Below, piece by piece: positions 2,759 through 56,455 of a stretch of 64,000 bases of DNA. The notes below the pieces were generated by a model, which ran no database searches, was not told where the DNA came from, and saw only the letters and a list, made by a program, of their open reading frames with translations. A program made the position numbers and the translations under genes. The stretch's first letter is position 1, and every line of letters begins with the position of its first letter. Source of the DNA: Escherichia phage T2; sequence record NC_054931.1; one strand, given 5' to 3'.

Positions 2759-4042
2759 ATGGCTAAAATCAACGAACTTCTGCGCGAATCAACCACAACG
2801 AATAGCAACTCAATCGGTCGCCCAAATCTCGTTGCTTTGACTCGCGCTACCACTAAATTAATATATTCTGACATTGTAGCAACGCAAAGAACTAATCAAC
2901 CTGTTGCTGCTTTTTATGGTATCAAATACCTTAACCCAGACAACGAATTTACATTTAAAACTGGTGCTACTTATGCTGGCGAAGCTGGATATGTAGACCG
3001 AGAACAAATCACAGAATTAACAGAAGAGTCTAAATTAACTCTCAATAAAGGCGATTTATTCAAATATAATAATATCGTTTATAAAGTATTAGAAGATACA
3101 CCATTTGCTGATATTGAAGAAAGCGACTTAGAGCTGGCTCTTCAGATTGCAATTGTTCTTTTAAAGGTTCGTCTATTTTCTGACGCAGCGTCAACAAGCA
3201 AATTTGAAAGCTCTGATAGTGAAATTGCGGATGCTAGATTCCAGATTAATAAATGGCAAACCGCGGTTAAATCTCGTAAACTTAAAACTGGCATCACAGT
3301 TGAATTAGCGCAAGATTTAGAAGCAAATGGATTCGATGCTCCTAATTTCTTGGAAGATTTGCTTGCAACTGAAATGGCAGATGAAATCAATAAAGATATT
3401 CTGCAATCTTTGATTACAGTGTCAAAACGCTATAAAGTTACAGGAATTACTGATAGTGGATTCATCGATTTGAGTTATGCGTCTGCACCTGAAGCTGGTC
3501 GTTCATTATACCGAATGGTATGTGAAATTGTTTCGCATATCCAAAAAGAATCAACTTATACAGCAACGTTCTGTGTTGCTTCTGCTCGTGCCGCTGCGAT
3601 TCTTGCTGCATCAGGTTGGTTAAAACATAAACCAGAAGATGACAAATATCTTTCACAAAATGCCTACGGGTTATTAGCTAATGGTTTACCGCTTTATTGC
3701 GATACTAACAGCCCATTAGATTATGTAATCGTTGGTGTAGTAGAAAATATCGGTGAAAAAGAAATTGTTGGATCAATTTTCTATGCTCCGTATACAGAAG
3801 GTCTCGACTTAGATGACCCTGAACATGTAGGCGCATTTAAAGTTGTTGTTGATCCAGAAAGCTTACAACCGTCTATCAGTTTATTAGTTAGATATGCTTT
3901 ATCAGCAAATCCTTATACCGTAGCAAAAGATGAAAAAGAAGCAAGAGTAATTGATGGTGGAGACATGGATAAAATGGCGGGTCGTTCAGATTTGTCTGTT
4001 TTATTAGGTGTTAAATTACCAAAAATTATTATTGATGAATAA
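2759..4042 (+). CDS. 24: capsid vertex protein gp24
   Basis: 427-aa gp23 paralog immediately downstream of 23; length matches T4 gp24. Confidence 0.93.
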   Translation: MAKINELLRESTTTNSNSIGRPNLVALTRATTKLIYSDIVATQRTNQPVAAFYGIKYLNPDNEFTFKTGATYAGEAGYVDREQITELTEESKLTLNKGDLFKYNNIVYKVLEDTPFADIEESDLELALQIAIVLLKVRLFSDAASTSKFESSDSEIADARFQINKWQTAVKSRKLKTGITVELAQDLEANGFDAPNFLEDLLATEMADEINKDILQSLITVSKRYKVTGITDSGFIDLSYASAPEAGRSLYRMVCEIVSHIQKESTYTATFCVASARAAAILAASGWLKHKPEDDKYLSQNAYGLLANGLPLYCDTNSPLDYVIVGVVENIGEKEIVGSIFYAPYTEGLDLDDPEHVGAFKVVVDPESLQPSISLLVRYALSANPYTVAKDEKEARVIDGGDMDKMAGRSDLSVLLGVKLPKIIIDE

Positions 4043-4048
4043 AACAAA

Positions 4049-4073
4049 GGGACCGAAAGGTCCCTTTTTATTT
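4049..4073. terminator. bidirectional intrinsic terminator between gene 24 and rnlB
   Basis: GGGACC-GAAA-GGTCCC hairpin with T tract on + strand and A tract upstream; lies between convergent genes. Confidence 0.65.
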
Positions 4074-5072
4074 AGCTCACCAACTCAATCCAAGCTGGAC
4101 GAAGTACATCTTACCATTTTAACTAATTCCTTTTTAATCAAAGAAGGATTATCTGCTTGAGTTAGAGTAATACCTTCACGAGAAGTTTCTTCCAAAATAT
4201 CTTGAACAGTTAGCCCCATCACCTTTCCAAAATCCTTTGGACCAATTTCGCCAATTTTAGAAATAACGTTATTTACACGGTTCAGTGTAACGTAACAAGC
4301 TAAAATTCCCACCAATTTGTTATCAGCTTCTGATAGTTCAACTTTAGCTTTAATAGGCTTATCAGACTTTTTCTTTTCACTAAATTTGGAATTCTTGCAT
4401 TTAATTGCTACACGATTTCCATTATGAAGCCAAGAAGGATAACAAGGTTTCAATACATATCCTTCAGCAGTAAATACTTCGCCTTTTGCTTCGGCATTCC
4501 AAACGCATTTATTTGCATCAACTAATCCAGCATGGTCTACTGTAAAATTATAATCTTGGACGACAGAATCTAAATCATTTGGCAATTTAATAAGCTCTTC
4601 AAATTTACCGCGACCTAAAAGTGGAGCAATTTTAAATTTAAATGTATTACAGAATGATTCCATCATATAATCATCAACATAAGTCACATCACCACTTTCT
4701 GTAGTGACAATAATGTCAAATACATAAAAATCTTTATCGCCATAATCAACATTCTTCTGAATGCCAGGTCCAGCGAATTCGCCAAAGACTTGATAAGATA
4801 CAACCGCTGAGGTTTCCATAATATCTTGTACTGCTTTAATGGAATCAGCGTAATTCTTTAGAATAATTTCATACCCAAAGAAATCTTCAGCAGGAAGAAT
4901 CGGTCCAGTACGTTTAGCACAAGTTACTTTATCACGCTCAATAATCAATGAGAAATTTGTGCCGTGAATCTTTTCACGAGCTACCCATTCGCCGCCAGTC
5001 AATCCCAAGCTGTAAAGTTTTTCAATAAATTTAGAGTTGTAATGATTTTCAAGACTGCTACTTTTTAAACAT
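4072..5072 (-). pseudogene. rnlB: RNA ligase 2 (Rnl2) gene disrupted by two 2-bp deletions
   Basis: ATG at 5072 gives MFKK then TAG; the body (KIHGTNF ligase motif) is in a second frame from 5008; the C-terminus switches to a third frame encoding [12 protein letters not shown] with stop at 4072-4074. Confidence 0.75.
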
Positions 5073-5081
5073 AATTAATCC

Positions 5082-5357
5082 TCAAAATGTAATTTCTAAC
5101 CAATCACCATCACGCTGATCACTATTGACTTTAAAATTAAATCCTTCTTTTCTCAGCCAATCACCAATTTCTTCAGTAATCAATTTATCGCGAGCAGTAT
5201 AATAACTAAAATATGTTTTACCTTGTTCAGCTGCTTTATTAGCAAGTTCCGAAAAATCTTTAATAAAACACTCTAGCTTAAACTGTTTACTTTTTAATGC
5301 TTTTTCGCGTAATTGATTAGCAAAAGATTCATTTTCATAAAGTTCATACTGTTCCAT
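5082..5357 (-). CDS. hypothetical protein (24.2-like position)
   Basis: 91-aa ORF, synteny between rnlB and hoc. Confidence 0.55.
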   Translation of the reverse strand: MEQYELYENESFANQLREKALKSKQFKLECFIKDFSELANKAAEQGKTYFSYYTARDKLITEEIGDWLRKEGFNFKVNSDQRDGDWLEITF

Positions 5358-5559
5358 TTTTCACCTTTTTATTGATATGTCTTTTTCTATAGACAACTTT
5401 TTCTCGAGTTTCAAATTTATTCTTAGCAGTCATAGCTCGAGCCCATAATACAGCCACTTCTTTTGCATGTAAGTTTAATTCACGAGCAATTTCAATGAAT
5501 GACTTTCCAGACTCATGAAGAGTAAACACCACAACCTCAGTTCTCATATTCAATCTCAT
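5344..5559 (-). CDS. hypothetical protein (24.3-like position)
   Basis: 71-aa ORF overlapping the downstream gene by 14 nt. Confidence 0.55.
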   Translation of the reverse strand: MRLNMRTEVVVFTLHESGKSFIEIARELNLHAKEVAVLWARAMTAKNKFETREKVVYRKRHINKKVKNGTV

Positions 5560-5628
5560 GTTATCGAGTTGGTGCCATTATATACATCATTTTCTGATTG
5601 TGTTTTGTGTGCTTTCAAAATGAAGAAA

Positions 5629-5642
5629 GGGGCCGAAGCCCC
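5629..5642 (-). terminator. stem-loop/terminator downstream of hoc
   Basis: GGGGC-CGAA-GCCCC hairpin followed on the - strand by a T-rich tract. Confidence 0.5.
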
Positions 5643-5648
5643 TTATGA

Positions 5649-6765
5649 TTATGGATAGGTATAGATGATACCAGTTTCTAAAGCAGTTTTATGAATGATG
5701 TATCCATTACGCGATTCTTGGACATCAACTTCTGGATAGTCTTTCATCATCTTCTGAAGAGTGTAACGATGCAGGTAGTATTTACTCTGGATCTTCAGTT
5801 TTCCAATCTTTACCTTCTTCAGTCATTTTTTGGATTTCATCCATAACCCACCAACCGCACCAGATGTAAGCTGAAGTACGATGTGGAAGAGGATGAACAT
5901 AAGGTAATTCACCTTCTGGTTCTGGAGCAACTTTATCAGTTACCTGAACTTGACCTGTTGTTTTAACTGTTTTGCTATCATAATCAGTAGCAGTAACGAC
6001 GGCAGTCACTTCAATAGTTTGACTTCCAACAGATGAAGTATCAACGGTATATACATTAGTTGACCCTTCTACAGGAGAAGAATCTTTCTTCCATGAATAA
6101 GTAATTTGCGCTTCTTCTGGAGCATCAGTAACATTAGCAGTAAATGTAGCCGAAGCATCTTGTTGAACGTTAATAGAAGGAGGAGTCAATGTAACCTGTG
6201 GATTCATTGTCTTCTTATTAACCGTTAATGACACTTCATTAGAAGTAACGCTTAGTGCATCATAATCTGTCGCGGTTACTTGAGCTACACACTTGATTTT
6301 TTAACTCCACTTGTAGTTGGAGTATAGCTAAATGTAGAGTTAGTTTCTCCACCAACTTGTGAATCATCTACATACCACTGATACGTAGCAGATGCTCCAT
6401 CAGGTTGAGAAGCTAAGGCAGCAGTAAATTGAACTGGGGTTCCGATTACTCCAGCGTCAGGGCTATTAGGAGTTACAGCTAAGGTGGTCGTTTGTGTCTT
6501 ATTTTGAACTGTGATAGTTGTAGTAGCTTCTGCTGTTTCAGCTTCAGCTTCTGGAATTGTATTTGTTGCAACTACTTTAATAGTCTTTTGACCGGCAGGT
6601 ATAACTAAAAGTTGCTTCAGCTCCATCTTGTGGAACATTATCTACGCTCCAAGCATAGGTAATAGTTCCACCTTCAGTTTGACCACTGGGTGCAGCAGTA
6701 AACTGCTTGGTTTCATCAATAACCCCTGTCGGTGTTTTAGGAGTTATATCAACTGTAAAAGTCAT
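5649..6765 (-). pseudogene. hoc: hoc (outer capsid decoration protein) disrupted by three frameshifts
   Basis: N-terminus MTFTVDITPKTPTGVIDETKQF matches T4 Hoc; coding continues in three different frames with breaks near 6600, 6295 (A-run) and 5786; C-terminal ...GIIYTYP read in the third frame to stop 5649-5651. Confidence 0.75.
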
Positions 6766-6774
6766 AAGTTATCC

Positions 6775-7455
6775 TTATTTTAATGTTACGAAAGAAGAAT
6801 TGCGTGTTTCACGAATTAAAACTGATCCGTCGCGGTTAATGTAATAAATTAAGCTAAATAAAGTTTGGTGTGCTGACGCATGTTCAAAACTAGTTGGGTG
6901 AGATTTCCAATCCGGAGTTTCAGCAATCCATTGATAAATCCACCAAGGAACAGTGCAGAATCCTGGATTTTTTCCAATCAGCTGAAGATTCGGACTAAAG
7001 TTTTCCGGAAGAGTAAATACAGACGGCTTTTCAGATTCAATAATCTCAGCTACAGCTTGTTCAAACTTTTCTTCAACAAAAGGAGTATCTTCAATCAAAA
7101 CATCGGTATTTTCAGGAATTTTATCCGTTTCTACTACTTCAATTTTAATGTCAGATTTAACCGGAGAATCAATCAGAAGTGCTGCTTCTGGATTGACTTC
7201 TTCATCGTCATATTTTAATCCCTCTGCGGCATCAGCAGCATCAATTAAGTCTTTAATAGATAACCCATCAGTCTCTGGCATAGGTTCACTAGCGAGCTTC
7301 TGGAGGGCTTCTTCAATATCAACAACGATATTATCAAAAGATTTATTCTTTTTGACCTTTATACCAAACTGTTCAGCATATTCAGCTAATTTAGCTTTAG
7401 CTTCTTTGTTATCATCAAGAGCCTTCAGCTCTGCAATATAATCTTTATCTATCAT
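6775..7455 (-). CDS. inh: inhibitor of prohead protease Inh
   Basis: 226-aa ORF between hoc and uvsW; length and position match T4 inh. Confidence 0.8.
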   Translation of the reverse strand: MIDKDYIAELKALDDNKEAKAKLAEYAEQFGIKVKKNKSFDNIVVDIEEALQKLASEPMPETDGLSIKDLIDAADAAEGLKYDDEEVNPEAALLIDSPVKSDIKIEVVETDKIPENTDVLIEDTPFVEEKFEQAVAEIIESEKPSVFTLPENFSPNLQLIGKNPGFCTVPWWIYQWIAETPDWKSHPTSFEHASAHQTLFSLIYYINRDGSVLIRETRNSSFVTLK

Positions 7456-7468
7456 AATATTTCCTCAG

Positions 7469-7476
7469 TATAAATA
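7469..7476 (+). promoter_or_regulatory. late promoter TATAAATA upstream of uvsW
   Basis: Exact TATAAATA 30 nt upstream of the uvsW ATG in the inh/uvsW divergent intergenic region. Confidence 0.5.
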
Positions 7477-7505
7477 TAGATATATTTATTACATGGTATT
7501 TAGAC

Positions 7506-24884: not shown

Positions 24885-25339
24885 AGAGAGTCTCTTAATA
24901 GGTTTAACACATCAATAAATTCAGCTTCGGTTAGTATTGTATCATCTTTTGTTAGACCACTAGCCATGCTGTGCTTCAAAACTTTTCCTTTCGAGGCTAG
25001 TAATGCATCACGAAAGCCCTTGTTTTGAATCGCTGCTTCAAAATATGCATTTGTATATAATTCTTTCCACGCTGGGGAGTATCTTGAAAACGGAACTCCG
25101 AGCCAGAAGAGGGTCCCACGGTCCTGAGCTCTAGCATAAGACCTTCCAGCTTGTTGGGCGGCAAGCCCGGATAACCCAAATATACGACGTTGTTGTTCAA
25201 CATTTTTCACCTTGCATCCTTGGAGGAATCCTTCAAGACCTCCGAATTGAATACCATCCATGACGAAAGGCCATTGGGCGAAATTACTTAATGCGCATGA
25301 TGGCCATCTAAAATTGCTTCTAATCTCTAACTCAGACAT
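24881..25339 (-). CDS. YbiA/NADAR (DUF1768)-like protein (30.3 position)
   Basis: 152-aa ORF; LSNFAQWPFVMDG...FLQGCK resembles the E. coli YbiA core FSNFAAWPIKVDG...FQAQK. Confidence 0.6.
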   Translation of the reverse strand: MSELEIRSNFRWPSCALSNFAQWPFVMDGIQFGGLEGFLQGCKVKNVEQQRRIFGLSGLAAQQAGRSYARAQDRGTLFWLGVPFSRYSPAWKELYTNAYFEAAIQNKGFRDALLASKGKVLKHSMASGLTKDDTILTEAEFIDVLNLLRDSL

Positions 25340-25550
25340 CTTTAATACTTTATAATTTCAACATCCGCCCAATGACCATAACTTGGCAGACGGTCTTCAA
25401 TAGATAATCCACCATCATATTTAAGCATTTTAATTGTCATAATATGGCTCTAAATGGTCTTCTGTGAGCGTAGAAACGTCAGTCACACGATAAGTAACTT
25501 CAACCATTTCCGTACCTAATAATTTCTGAATTAATTTCTTAAACATATTA

Positions 25551-56033: not shown

Positions 56034-56180
56034 TTAGTTGACTTTGTTAATATCATCAGACGCTTGATTTGTAAACTGGTCTGTGTTATTTTCTTCAAAA
56101 ATTTTTTCTACGAATTCCTTGAACGACTCACGTTCCTGAGCTACATTGTGCTCGATTACATTTTCAAGATTATGACTCAT
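56034..56180 (-). CDS. small acidic hypothetical protein
   Basis: 48-codon ORF, ATGA overlap with arn stop; below ORF-track cutoff. Confidence 0.4.
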   Translation of the reverse strand: MSHNLENVIEHNVAQERESFKEFVEKIFEENNTDQFTNQASDDINKVN

Positions 56181-56455
56181 TCGAAATAATCTTCAATTTC
56201 GTAATCATGGACATAAAACATTATAGTTTTTAATACATCATCAATACTTTTTCCTGGAGCTGGAATTACGTAAAAATACCCTGCTTTTGAGAGGTCTTTA
56301 TAAGTTCCAATCAAGAAATCATTATTCTCAAGATGTAACTCTTCAACTAATTCATTAACAATTGAGTGGTATAAATTTGGTAGAAACTTATATAGCTTTT
56401 CTAGAATATCAATTTTGATTGTGTATTGAACCACAGATTGAGAATCAATAATCAT
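56177..56455 (-). CDS. arn: Arn anti-restriction protein (McrBC inhibitor)
   Basis: 92-aa acidic ORF downstream of motA cluster; size and position match T4 arn. Confidence 0.8.
   Translation of the reverse strand: MIIDSQSVVQYTIKIDILEKLYKFLPNLYHSIVNELVEELHLENNDFLIGTYKDLSKAGYFYVIPAPGKSIDDVLKTIMFYVHDYEIEDYFE

Follow-up and report, generated by a model that had tools for sequence, protein, structure and literature searches.

Very likely pseudogenes of hoc and rnlB in Escherichia phage T2, broken by five small deletions

The window analyzed here is a 64,000-nucleotide stretch of sequence record NC_054931.1, and all positions refer to it. It is from Escherichia phage T2 and matches six T2-type records at 100%. 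Two genes on its minus strand, hoc and rnlB, are split across reading frames, and the two small genes between them, 24.2 and 24.3, are intact. The lesions were placed by aligning window positions 3400-7500, on the gene-sense (minus) strand, with T4 (MT984581) and PhiZZ6. The features of the two genes are as follows.

5649..6765, minus strand: hoc, probable pseudogene, with the native ATG at 6765, the original stop at 5649-5651 and three frames
Between 6601 and 6600, minus strand: hoc lesion 1, an 11-nt deletion of GTACTAAAAGG at codons about 56-59 (VLKG)
6293..6299, minus strand: hoc lesion 2, a 1-nt contraction of A7 to A6, placed by alignment
Between 5787 and 5786, minus strand: hoc lesion 3, a 2-nt deletion (AT; GATAGT to GAGT), placed by alignment
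4072..5072, minus strand: rnlB (RNA ligase 2, gene 24.1), probable pseudogene, with the native ATG at 5072 and the original stop at 4072-4074
Between 5061 and 5060, minus strand: rnlB lesion 1, a 2-nt deletion (TA in GTATAG) at codon 5
Between 4113 and 4112, minus strand: rnlB lesion 2, a 2-nt deletion (AC; GTACAAG to GTAAG) at codon 322

Translation of hoc from the native start passes the first lesion into seven junk residues and then a stop, giving a product of 62 aa. The 11 nt missing at this site are present in all nine intact relatives used for comparison (T4, PhiZZ6, FL33, SP21535, G8, AugustSocin, FL08, RB3, and Manna). At the second lesion T2 reads GTTAAAAAATC, where three phages with its allele (Manna, SP21535, and G8) read GTTAAAAAAATC. 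The third lesion creates GAG TAA, with loss of the last 45 residues, the C-terminal capsid-binding part; these 45 codons are no longer joined in frame to any Ig-like segment. The hoc pieces match PKD/Ig Pfam families and show 91-100% identity by tblastn in alternating frames, with homology throughout the coding sequence. Repair in silico restores 376 codons with no stop and 23 differences from T4 Hoc. As it stands, split over three frames, T2 hoc does not qualify as a gene for the Hoc decoration protein. In 1977 Ishii and Yanagida, and also Yanagida, reportedly found the hoc protein to be missing from T2 heads, and a broken hoc fits this old observation of Hoc-less heads.

In rnlB, the first lesion is the loss of one unit of (TA)2, and the native ATG gives MFKK followed by TAG. 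The second lesion puts 8 residues, RCTSSSLD, in place of the last 13, and the expected C-terminal tail is found in a third frame ending at 4072. The gene repaired in silico has 334 codons and no stop, and is identical to T4 Rnl2 except for M149I and R217H. The unrepaired gene features no uninterrupted ORF that would lead from a functional start to a complete enzyme. Its only long ORF (307 aa, 4085-5008, with homology from 5065) opens at an internal TTG at 5008, which is preceded by GAAAAACTTTACAGC without a Shine-Dalgarno sequence. The Rnl2 domain is recognizable in this ORF, with PF09414 RNA_ligase at 83.3 bits and PF18043 T4_Rnl2_C at 82.7 bits, both above the cut-offs, and with motif I (the KxHGxN lysine) present as EKIHGTNF. 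The internal TTG, the missing Shine-Dalgarno sequence, the loss of residues 1-22, and the scrambled C-terminus together make an active RNA ligase 2 very unlikely, and judging from the sequence the activity is very probably absent from T2. No report of T2 lacking Rnl2 activity was found in the literature.

The original prediction had read these frames correctly. In hoc it put the breaks near 6600 (-2 mod 3), in an A-run at about 6295 (-1), and near 5786 (-2). In rnlB it described MFKK and TAG from ATG 5072 with the ligase body in a second frame from 5008, and a 3' switch of frame near 4110 to a tail ending at 4072, with 2 nt lost at each place; the deletions are those at 5061/5060 and 4113/4112. 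All five positions and mod-3 values agree with the alignment to T4 and PhiZZ6. Each of the nine relatives has a single full-length rnlB (334-335 codons) and a single full-length hoc (376-378 codons) annotated at this locus. Measured against them, all five deletions (hoc, 11, 1, and 2 nt; rnlB, 2 nt twice) are private to T2. The in-silico repairs show that the five deletions are the sole defects, each segment being otherwise free of stops.

The original prediction had also raised a locally poor assembly as an alternative. The frameshifts would then be sequencing errors, and the real phage would have an intact hoc and rnlB. One lesion, A7 to A6, does lie in a homopolymer, which is error-prone on some sequencing platforms. 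However, the other four lie outside homopolymers, and one of the lesions is 11 nt long. The six T2-type records, which are five named T2 and SV76 (MH751506, AP018813, PV648363, PV648364, PV958097, and SV76), are separate deposits of Japanese, US, and French origin, with total lengths between 163,826 and 163,904. All six are 100% identical over positions 3900-7000 and contain all five junctions. A Hoc-less phenotype is also reported for T2 in a review, which states that Hoc is absent from this phage (PMC8396182). Because the six records are concordant, the lesions are not assembly or homopolymer errors; assembly error as the cause of the split frames is rejected, and an artefact has almost no chance of being the explanation. 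Two properties of a pseudogene are present: close relatives have an intact orthologue at this locus, and the lesions are reproducible in independent sequence determinations. All T2 records share a common ancestry in one historical stock. Their agreement excludes sequencing error; the decay itself may have taken place in the wild or over decades of passage in the laboratory. A junction-specific search of 50,697 records found none of the five junctions outside the six T2-type records. Exact junctions were also not found in IMG/VR or JGI metagenomes, a search with little power because its positive control, the intact site, matched only two IMG/VR contigs, both of them isolate genomes.

The genes hoc and rnlB were also considered as sites of programmed ribosomal frameshifting or as phase-variable contingency loci switched by repeat slippage. 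The 5' site of rnlB, TTT AAA AAG TAG, looks like an A-AAA-AAG slippery motif with a stop after it; that motif, however, promotes -1 shifts and the rnlB site needs +1 or -2. No slippery heptamer is found at the hoc frame breaks, where three separate events would be needed; one of these would have to bridge the 11-nt deletion, in which four conserved codons are lost. Nor is the frame structure conserved: the original prediction held that split frames in relatives would count against lesions in T2, and all nine relatives examined have one continuous frame in each gene. Homopolymers of at least 6 nt have been proposed as contingency loci in T2 (bioRxiv 10.1101/2025.10.21.683753), and the 1-nt lesion of hoc is in an A6 run, a class reported to be hypermutable in this phage. 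That run is the only one of the five lesion sites to qualify; reverting it cannot restore hoc, and no single slippage restores either gene. The report that T2 virions are without Hoc (PMC8396182) also argues against recoding. For hoc and rnlB we reject programmed frameshifting as well as phase variation, and recoding of any kind is a very remote prospect. The slippage from A7 to A6 in hoc does resemble the phage contingency loci described for T2 agt and T4 rIIA (Gomez, Barrick and Waters 2025 preprint), but those loci are reversible and involve a single repeat, whereas hoc and rnlB carry extra non-repeat lesions and are permanently off.

The lesions are unevenly distributed over the window. 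Its coding DNA contains eight uncompensated frame-changing T2-private indels, five of which are in rnlB and hoc, and these two genes make up 4.2% of the coding sites (binomial P = 6e-6). The density of frame-changing indels in rnlB and hoc is about 38 times that of the other coding DNA of the window. Private substitutions, counted against 8-9 relatives, number 1 in rnlB (nonsynonymous) and 2-3 in hoc (1 nonsynonymous and 2 synonymous). With three outgroups, the changes at first, second, and third codon positions are 4/4/13 in hoc and 1/0/3 in rnlB. The bias of these few substitutions toward third positions indicates that the loss of constraint was probably recent. The earlier view that the lesions look recent also finds agreement in the lack of secondary stops, in the two residues that separate repaired rnlB from T4 Rnl2, and in the small number of private substitutions.

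Five indels beside four strictly private substitutions had the appearance of an anomalous local indel excess. This candidate was rejected, since after correction for ascertainment the ratio is that of T2 intergenic DNA. Private indels and substitutions number 14:25 in the intergenic DNA of the window, a small sample polarized with only three outgroups, and the ratio in the dead genes does not differ from it (Fisher P = 0.45, and 1.0 when the first lesion of each gene is dropped). The indel excess therefore ceases to speak for any special mechanism. The neutral argument rests on how high the indel fraction is in the intergenic DNA of T2 itself; if mutations followed the usual spectrum, rich in substitutions, so few of them beside five indels would look odd.

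Decay is also not confined to rnlB and hoc, as the original prediction had claimed. Two more genes of the window carry frame-breaking lesions, and gene 24.2 has lost a codon while staying open.

5197..5200, minus strand: gene 24.2, with a T2-private loss of 3 nt at 5200 that keeps the frame
25337..25545, minus strand: gene 30.4, the third decayed gene of the window with more than one lesion, compared with PP01 and UFV13, phages that carry its allele
56040..56190, minus strand: asiA.1, with a T2-private 2-nt deletion (TA) at 56049 that rewrites the last 6 residues

Gene 30.4 is one 71-aa ORF in PP01 and UFV13, and in T2 it has lost 2 nt from an (AT)3 run near 25446 and gained 1 nt near 25350. 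A partial record of phage LZ has 30.4(A) and 30.4(B) annotated. Outside the window, nrdC.2, vs.8, mobD.1, and RB32ORF097c of T2 are likewise frame-split, and the pattern is the same, with three 2-nt deletions in nrdC.2, two in vs.8, and two in mobD.1. Comparable decay is thus found in at least five dispensable T2 genes besides hoc and rnlB, and because of these similar splits the two genes form no special cluster. The large genes are a different matter: about 100 T4 CDSs projected onto the window show all of them to be single-frame and full length, in agreement with the earlier statement that the large essential genes and the two small ORFs between rnlB and hoc are intact. The gene td first appeared frameshifted, an artefact of aligning it across the site where the intron is inserted; in T2 the gene is intronless and intact. 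The mobD.1 lesions also appeared to be common to wild phages, but Shfl2 has T2's allele without either deletion. The megablast matches of mobD.1 to wild phages were seeded through repeats.

The size of the deletions is the remaining peculiarity. Deletions of 2 nt account for 11/15 frame-breaking lesions in the decayed T2 genes, against 2/14 in intergenic DNA (P = 0.0025) and 2/22 private small indels in T4, PhiZZ6, and RB3 (P = 9e-5). This excess is no prediction of simple neutral decay and is unexplained. It is one reason to consider that hoc, rnlB, and the other split genes were inactivated by selection or by a targeted mechanism. Under selection, loss of Hoc and Rnl2, and of the other split genes, would have been favored, and repeated lesions would have removed leaky or harmful fragments. 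A mechanism could be a nuclease whose cuts, with 2-nt overhangs, were trimmed and re-joined, or a bias of the T2-lineage replisome toward -2 slippage. Most of the decayed genes have two or three lesions. The GIY-YIG genes segD and segE flank the block in T4-type phages and T2 is without both; SegB, a relative, is described as cutting to leave mostly 2-nt 3' overhangs (PMC2330249). However, the known SegE site is intergenic (hoc.1-uvsW) and outside hoc, and the deletions are spread through seven genes; inspection by eye showed no obvious motif common to the 2-nt sites. As read from the alignments, 9/13 of the 2-nt deletions are losses of one (TA)n/(AT)n unit or of two bases from a homopolymer of at least 4 nt, simple repeat contractions that are expected of ordinary slippage, and among the private small indels of T4, PhiZZ6, and RB3 roughly one in four is likewise a 2-nt event. 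The genes were chosen for having at least one lesion, and with the correction for this ascertainment the secondary indel:substitution ratio is the intergenic one. Selected or targeted inactivation is therefore considered unlikely. The original prediction took the clustering to argue for genuine or selected inactivation; inactivation is genuine, given six identical records, and its being selected does not follow, given the intergenic ratio. Selected inactivation of hoc and rnlB is neither needed nor shown.

The best explanation, held with high confidence, is that the T2 lineage carries hoc and rnlB as true pseudogenes, which arose through small deletions in genes dispensable on laboratory E. 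coli and then accumulated further lesions neutrally. Small deletions, at least partly slipped-strand replication errors, would have broken the frames. The first lesion would have removed selection from each gene, and later lesions would have gathered at about the T2 non-coding rate. Two of the five lesions clearly fit slippage, (TA)2 to TA and A7 to A6. Two more are X-N-X to X events, each with a microhomology of 1 nt; the last is the 11-nt deletion. We infer both the slippage mechanism and the neutrality of the later lesions. Because the indel:substitution ratio matches that of T2 intergenic DNA, neutral slippage decay suffices. The decay of hoc and rnlB is ordinary biology and no new system. 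There is a small chance that the dispensable genes of T2 carry a distinctive signature, with at least seven genes broken, mostly by two or three lesions, 2-nt deletions prevailing as above, and hardly any substitutions. If it exceeds (TA)n slippage, this signature would add something new to the evolution of T-even genomes as it is understood, and could be used as a marker of lineage history. The candidates for its origin would be a -2-biased replication or repair error of the T2 lineage, or trimmed and re-joined 2-nt-overhang breaks in mixed infections.

Several known systems are comparable. T2 hoc is inactive like the T4 hoc amber and deletion mutants and HAP1, a T4 mutant in which hoc C496T places a stop 44% of the way along the protein (PMC10580926), and T2 capsids are expected to be without the Hoc fibre at the hexamer centres and the phage to be viable. 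Unlike HAP1, T2 hoc has three independent frame-breaking deletions and not one point mutation, and has no one-step reversion; with three such deletions the Hoc-less state cannot revert. T2 rnlB is an orthologue of T4 Rnl2 (gp24.1), at the locus between genes 24 and 24.2, with 332/334 codons identical after repair. It differs in being broken at codons 5 and 322, and its native start yields no full-length enzyme. The decayed genes also resemble T4 alt.-1/alt.-2 and the defective I-TevIII in being frame-broken, dispensable remnants in a compact genome. In T4, alt.-1/alt.-2 is annotated as an old duplication into which a stop was introduced, and the paralogue is full length in T2. Decay in T2 differs from these remnants in consisting of several very small deletions, with almost no substitutions and in different genes.

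The practical value of these results lies mainly in annotation and in how the phage is used. T2, a standard model, is a natural Hoc-less control for work on phage-mammal interactions, and it already serves as a natural Hoc-less comparator (PMC8396182). Users of T2 in RNA repair, counter-defence, and capsid display should expect Rnl2 to be very probably missing, in addition to Hoc. The region also illustrates how T-even phages lose dispensable genes via repeated very small deletions. Literature searches turned up no genomic description of hoc or rnlB decay in T2; the one direct statement found is a review sentence on the absence of Hoc (PMC8396182). Annotation of the hoc locus is inconsistent, with nothing, three 'Hoc-like' proteins, or a 'large head outer capsid protein' given; MH751506 has no CDS annotated at hoc and the other T2 records have 3 'Hoc-like' fragments. 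One record names the truncated rnlB ORF 'RNA ligase 2' as though it were functional.

The T2 genes hoc (head decoration; w5649-6765, minus strand, where w is the window position) and rnlB (RNA ligase 2, Rnl2, gene 24.1; w4072-5072, minus strand) show the split-frame pattern described in the original prediction, as confirmed by the ORF list, the minus-strand sequence, and alignment. The lesions are real and T2-specific, and ordinary decay of dispensable genes into pseudogenes explains them. T2 was aligned with T4 and PhiZZ6 to locate the deletions, which are read here on the gene-sense (minus) strand.

Small deletions at the hoc-rnlB locus of T2
hoc, between w6601 and w6600: 11 nt deleted, GTACTAAAAGG
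hoc, A-run w6293-6299: 1 nt deleted, A7 to A6
hoc, between w5787 and w5786: 2 nt deleted, GATAGT to GAGT
24.2, w5200: 3 nt deleted in frame, reading frame remains open
rnlB, between w5061 and w5060: 2 nt deleted, GTATAG to GTAG
rnlB, between w4113 and w4112: 2 nt deleted, GTACAAG to GTAAG

In silico repair, in which the gaps were filled with N, gives 376 codons for hoc and 334 codons for rnlB with no stops. After repair, M149I and R217H are the sole differences from T4 in Rnl2; Hoc has 23 differing residues. A ten-phage hoc alignment shows that the 1-nt lesion is an A7 to A6 change in an allele that is intact in Manna, SP21535, and G8. Comparison of w5640-6775 with nine relatives revealed that hoc is a fine-scale mosaic of alleles still intact in other phages. 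The nearest relatives by successive 150-nt windows are T4, FL08, FL33, Manna, FL08, SP21535, and RB3, with 93-100% identity; whole-hoc identity to T2 is ≤93% in every single phage of the nine, and only 2 T2 hoc bases are missing from all of them.

A megablast search of 50,697 phage records matched w3900-7000 at 100% identity over its full length to the T2 records MH751506 (its positions minus 99,822 are window positions), AP018813, PV648363, and PV648364, and to SV76 (OM339528). The next-best matches, e.g. PhiZZ6, FL08, RB3, and T4, are ~95.7% identical. A fifth T2 record, PV958097, surfaced in gene-level searches. The region w3400-7500 is identical base for base in the four T2-type loci retrieved, and the agreement is exact among six deposits from different laboratories with total lengths of 163,826 to 163,904. 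The junctions were searched in the phage records as 48-mers with 24 nt on each side of the deletion; since megablast requires a 28-nt exact word, no seed can form without the junction itself. The frameshift junctions were matched by the six T2-type records only, all five being common to all six, and the remaining 48-mer matches, at the A-run and the in-frame 24.2 site, were gapped. The six concordant deposits and the junction search rule out a sequencing or assembly artefact, and with it the locally poor assembly that had been offered as one reading of the locus.

SV76 is recorded from sewage in France; its sequence matches that of T2 exactly over w3400-7500, all T2 lesions that were tested are present in it, and it has the same length as the Japanese T2 record AP018813 (163,826 bp). 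SV76 is effectively T2, re-isolated or carried over in a laboratory, and all T2 stocks descend from one common ancestor. Outside the T2-type records no phage record carries the lesions, except a partial record of phage LZ at 30.4. The exact junctions were found in neither IMG/VR nor JGI metagenomes, a search of low power, as Tequatrovirus hoc was nearly absent from IMG/VR in the control.

About 100 annotated T4 CDSs were projected onto the window by tblastn. The large genes are all full length in a single frame, as predicted; segD, segE, segG, mobE, I-TevI, 30.5, 30.8, and a T4-type gp38 are absent from the T2 window. Every small indel in the window was polarised against T4, PhiZZ6, and RB3, which gave 30 T2-private events, 14 of them intergenic. 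Among the coding events, several keep the frame or are compensated locally (24.2, 30.2, 54, and 34). The frame-changing indels in this three-outgroup census are five in hoc and rnlB plus a single one each in asiA.1 and 30.4. The indel apparent in td is an intron-site artefact; this gene is intact and intron-free in T2. The claim that the lesions are confined to rnlB and hoc therefore does not quite hold, because two further genes in the window are affected.

Other frame-changed genes in the window
30.4, w25337-25545, minus strand: loss of 2 nt within an (AT)3 run plus a 1-nt insertion, relative to PP01 and UFV13
asiA.1, w56040-56190, minus strand: T2-private 2-nt (TA) deletion at w56049, near the 3' end

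PP01 and UFV13 have the same 30.4 allele as T2 in the form of a single 71-aa ORF. In the LZ partial record (FN868249) 30.4 is identical to T2, and its pieces are annotated 30.4(A) and 30.4(B). The asiA.1 deletion changes ...SDDIITKSTN to ...SDDINKVN, leaving an open ORF that is 2 residues shorter. Outside the window, a T2 record labels N- and C-terminal fragments for nrdC.2, RB32ORF097c, mobD.1, and vs.8, and the split genes were studied at MH751506 44955-45323, 54381-54993, and 61730-62432. Relative to T4, 2-nt deletions number three in nrdC.2 (net -6), two in vs.8, and one in mobD.1, which has a 1-nt deletion as well; Shfl2 has the mobD.1 allele of T2 without either deletion. The nrdC.2, vs.8, and mobD.1 junctions are common to all six T2-type records. 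At least seven frame-broken dispensable genes are thus spread round the T2 genome, and the largest two, rnlB and hoc, happen to adjoin.

Five of the eight uncompensated frame-changing coding indels of the window lie in rnlB and hoc, which hold 4.2% of coding sites (P = 6e-6). Such a concentration is expected if constraint is lacking in those two genes and present in the rest. T2-private substitutions relative to 8-9 relatives number 1 in rnlB and 2-3 in hoc, and the 2,730 comparable intergenic sites of T2 carry 25 private substitutions alongside 14 private indels. An anomalous excess of indels in the two genes (five, against four substitutions) was considered and rejected: each decayed gene was chosen for having at least one lesion, and with this ascertainment allowed for, the indel:substitution ratio is indistinguishable from the intergenic one (Fisher P = 0.45 and 1.0). 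T2-specific substitutions relative to three outgroups fall mostly at the third codon position (by position, 4/4/13 in hoc and 1/0/3 in rnlB), which indicates that most arose while the genes were functional. Relative to the divergence among T-even phages, inactivation is therefore recent, in line with the age originally proposed.

Translation from the native start codons yields only MFKK for Rnl2 and a 62-residue peptide for Hoc (55 native and 7 out-of-frame residues). A 307-codon rnlB ORF, named 'RNA ligase 2' in one record, starts at an internal TTG (w5008) that has no Shine-Dalgarno sequence upstream. Residues 1-22 are missing from this ORF, and RCTSSSLD replaces the native 13-residue tail; the ORF still matches PF09414 and PF18043. 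Rnl2 activity has probably been lost in T2, judging from these reading frames, and no published statement on the consequence for Rnl2 in T2 was found in the literature. None of the Ig-like segments shares a frame with the last 45 hoc codons, which leaves nothing displayable on the T2 head. Ishii and Yanagida reportedly observed in the 1970s, by electron microscopy and gels, that T2 heads are without the hoc protein. The loss of hoc agrees with a T2 phenotype that was recognised decades ago, and several public records already contained the sequence; the rnlB decay and the set of multiply-hit genes across the genome appear to be undescribed, as new cases of a familiar process. The public T2 records disagree at the locus, and none of those examined uses a pseudogene label: MH751506 leaves hoc unannotated and names the truncated ORF 'RNA ligase 2', AP018813 uses 'large head outer capsid protein' for the hoc pieces and 'kilA anti-repressor' for inh, and PV648363 has three 'Hoc-like head decoration proteins'.

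Programmed frameshifting as a means of expressing hoc and rnlB fails. Relatives with the same frame structure, which would favor it, were looked for, and none has it. A slippery-looking AAA-AAG occurs at one site only, where the required shift is in the opposite direction; for hoc, three recoding events would be required, one of them spanning the 11-nt gap. Homopolymers of ≥6 nt in T2 have been put forward as contingency loci (bioRxiv 10.1101/2025.10.21.683753). The hoc A-run lesion fits this proposal and is the only one that does, but its reversion alone cannot restore the gene. Of the genuine or selected inactivation originally suggested, the first stands on the agreement of six records, and selection or targeting, an unlikely alternative, is not needed beside ordinary decay.

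The lesions probably originated by slipped-strand misalignment, to which their sequence context points. The rnlB 5' lesion is the loss of one unit of (TA)2 and the hoc 1-nt lesion a shortening of the A7 run, both as slippage would give, and the other two 2-nt deletions, in hoc and rnlB, convert X-N-X to X with 1-nt microhomology. The hoc 11-nt deletion has no clear repeat and could combine a 9-nt AC...AC repeat deletion with a 2-nt deletion. Across T2, 9 of 13 aligned 2-nt deletions contract a dinucleotide repeat or a homopolymer of ≥4 nt. Deletions of 2 nt make up 11/15 of the frame-breaking lesions in T2 decayed genes, compared with 2/14 of the T2 intergenic private indels (P = 0.0025) and 2/22 of the private small indels of T4, PhiZZ6, and RB3 (P = 9e-5). 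Mundane slippage is the likely source of this bias, because 2-nt events of either sign are ~1/4 of small indels in each of the four phages and most T2 ones are repeat contractions; it is the sole feature here that might reward more work.

Elsewhere, denV is missing beside vs.8 in T2, outside the window, and T2 and T4 are only ~60% identical in distal gene 37. A second alt paralogue is full length in T2, PhiZZ6, and RB3 (w17930-19978, minus strand), whereas T4 retains the remnants alt.-1 and alt.-2 and thus has its own decayed gene there.
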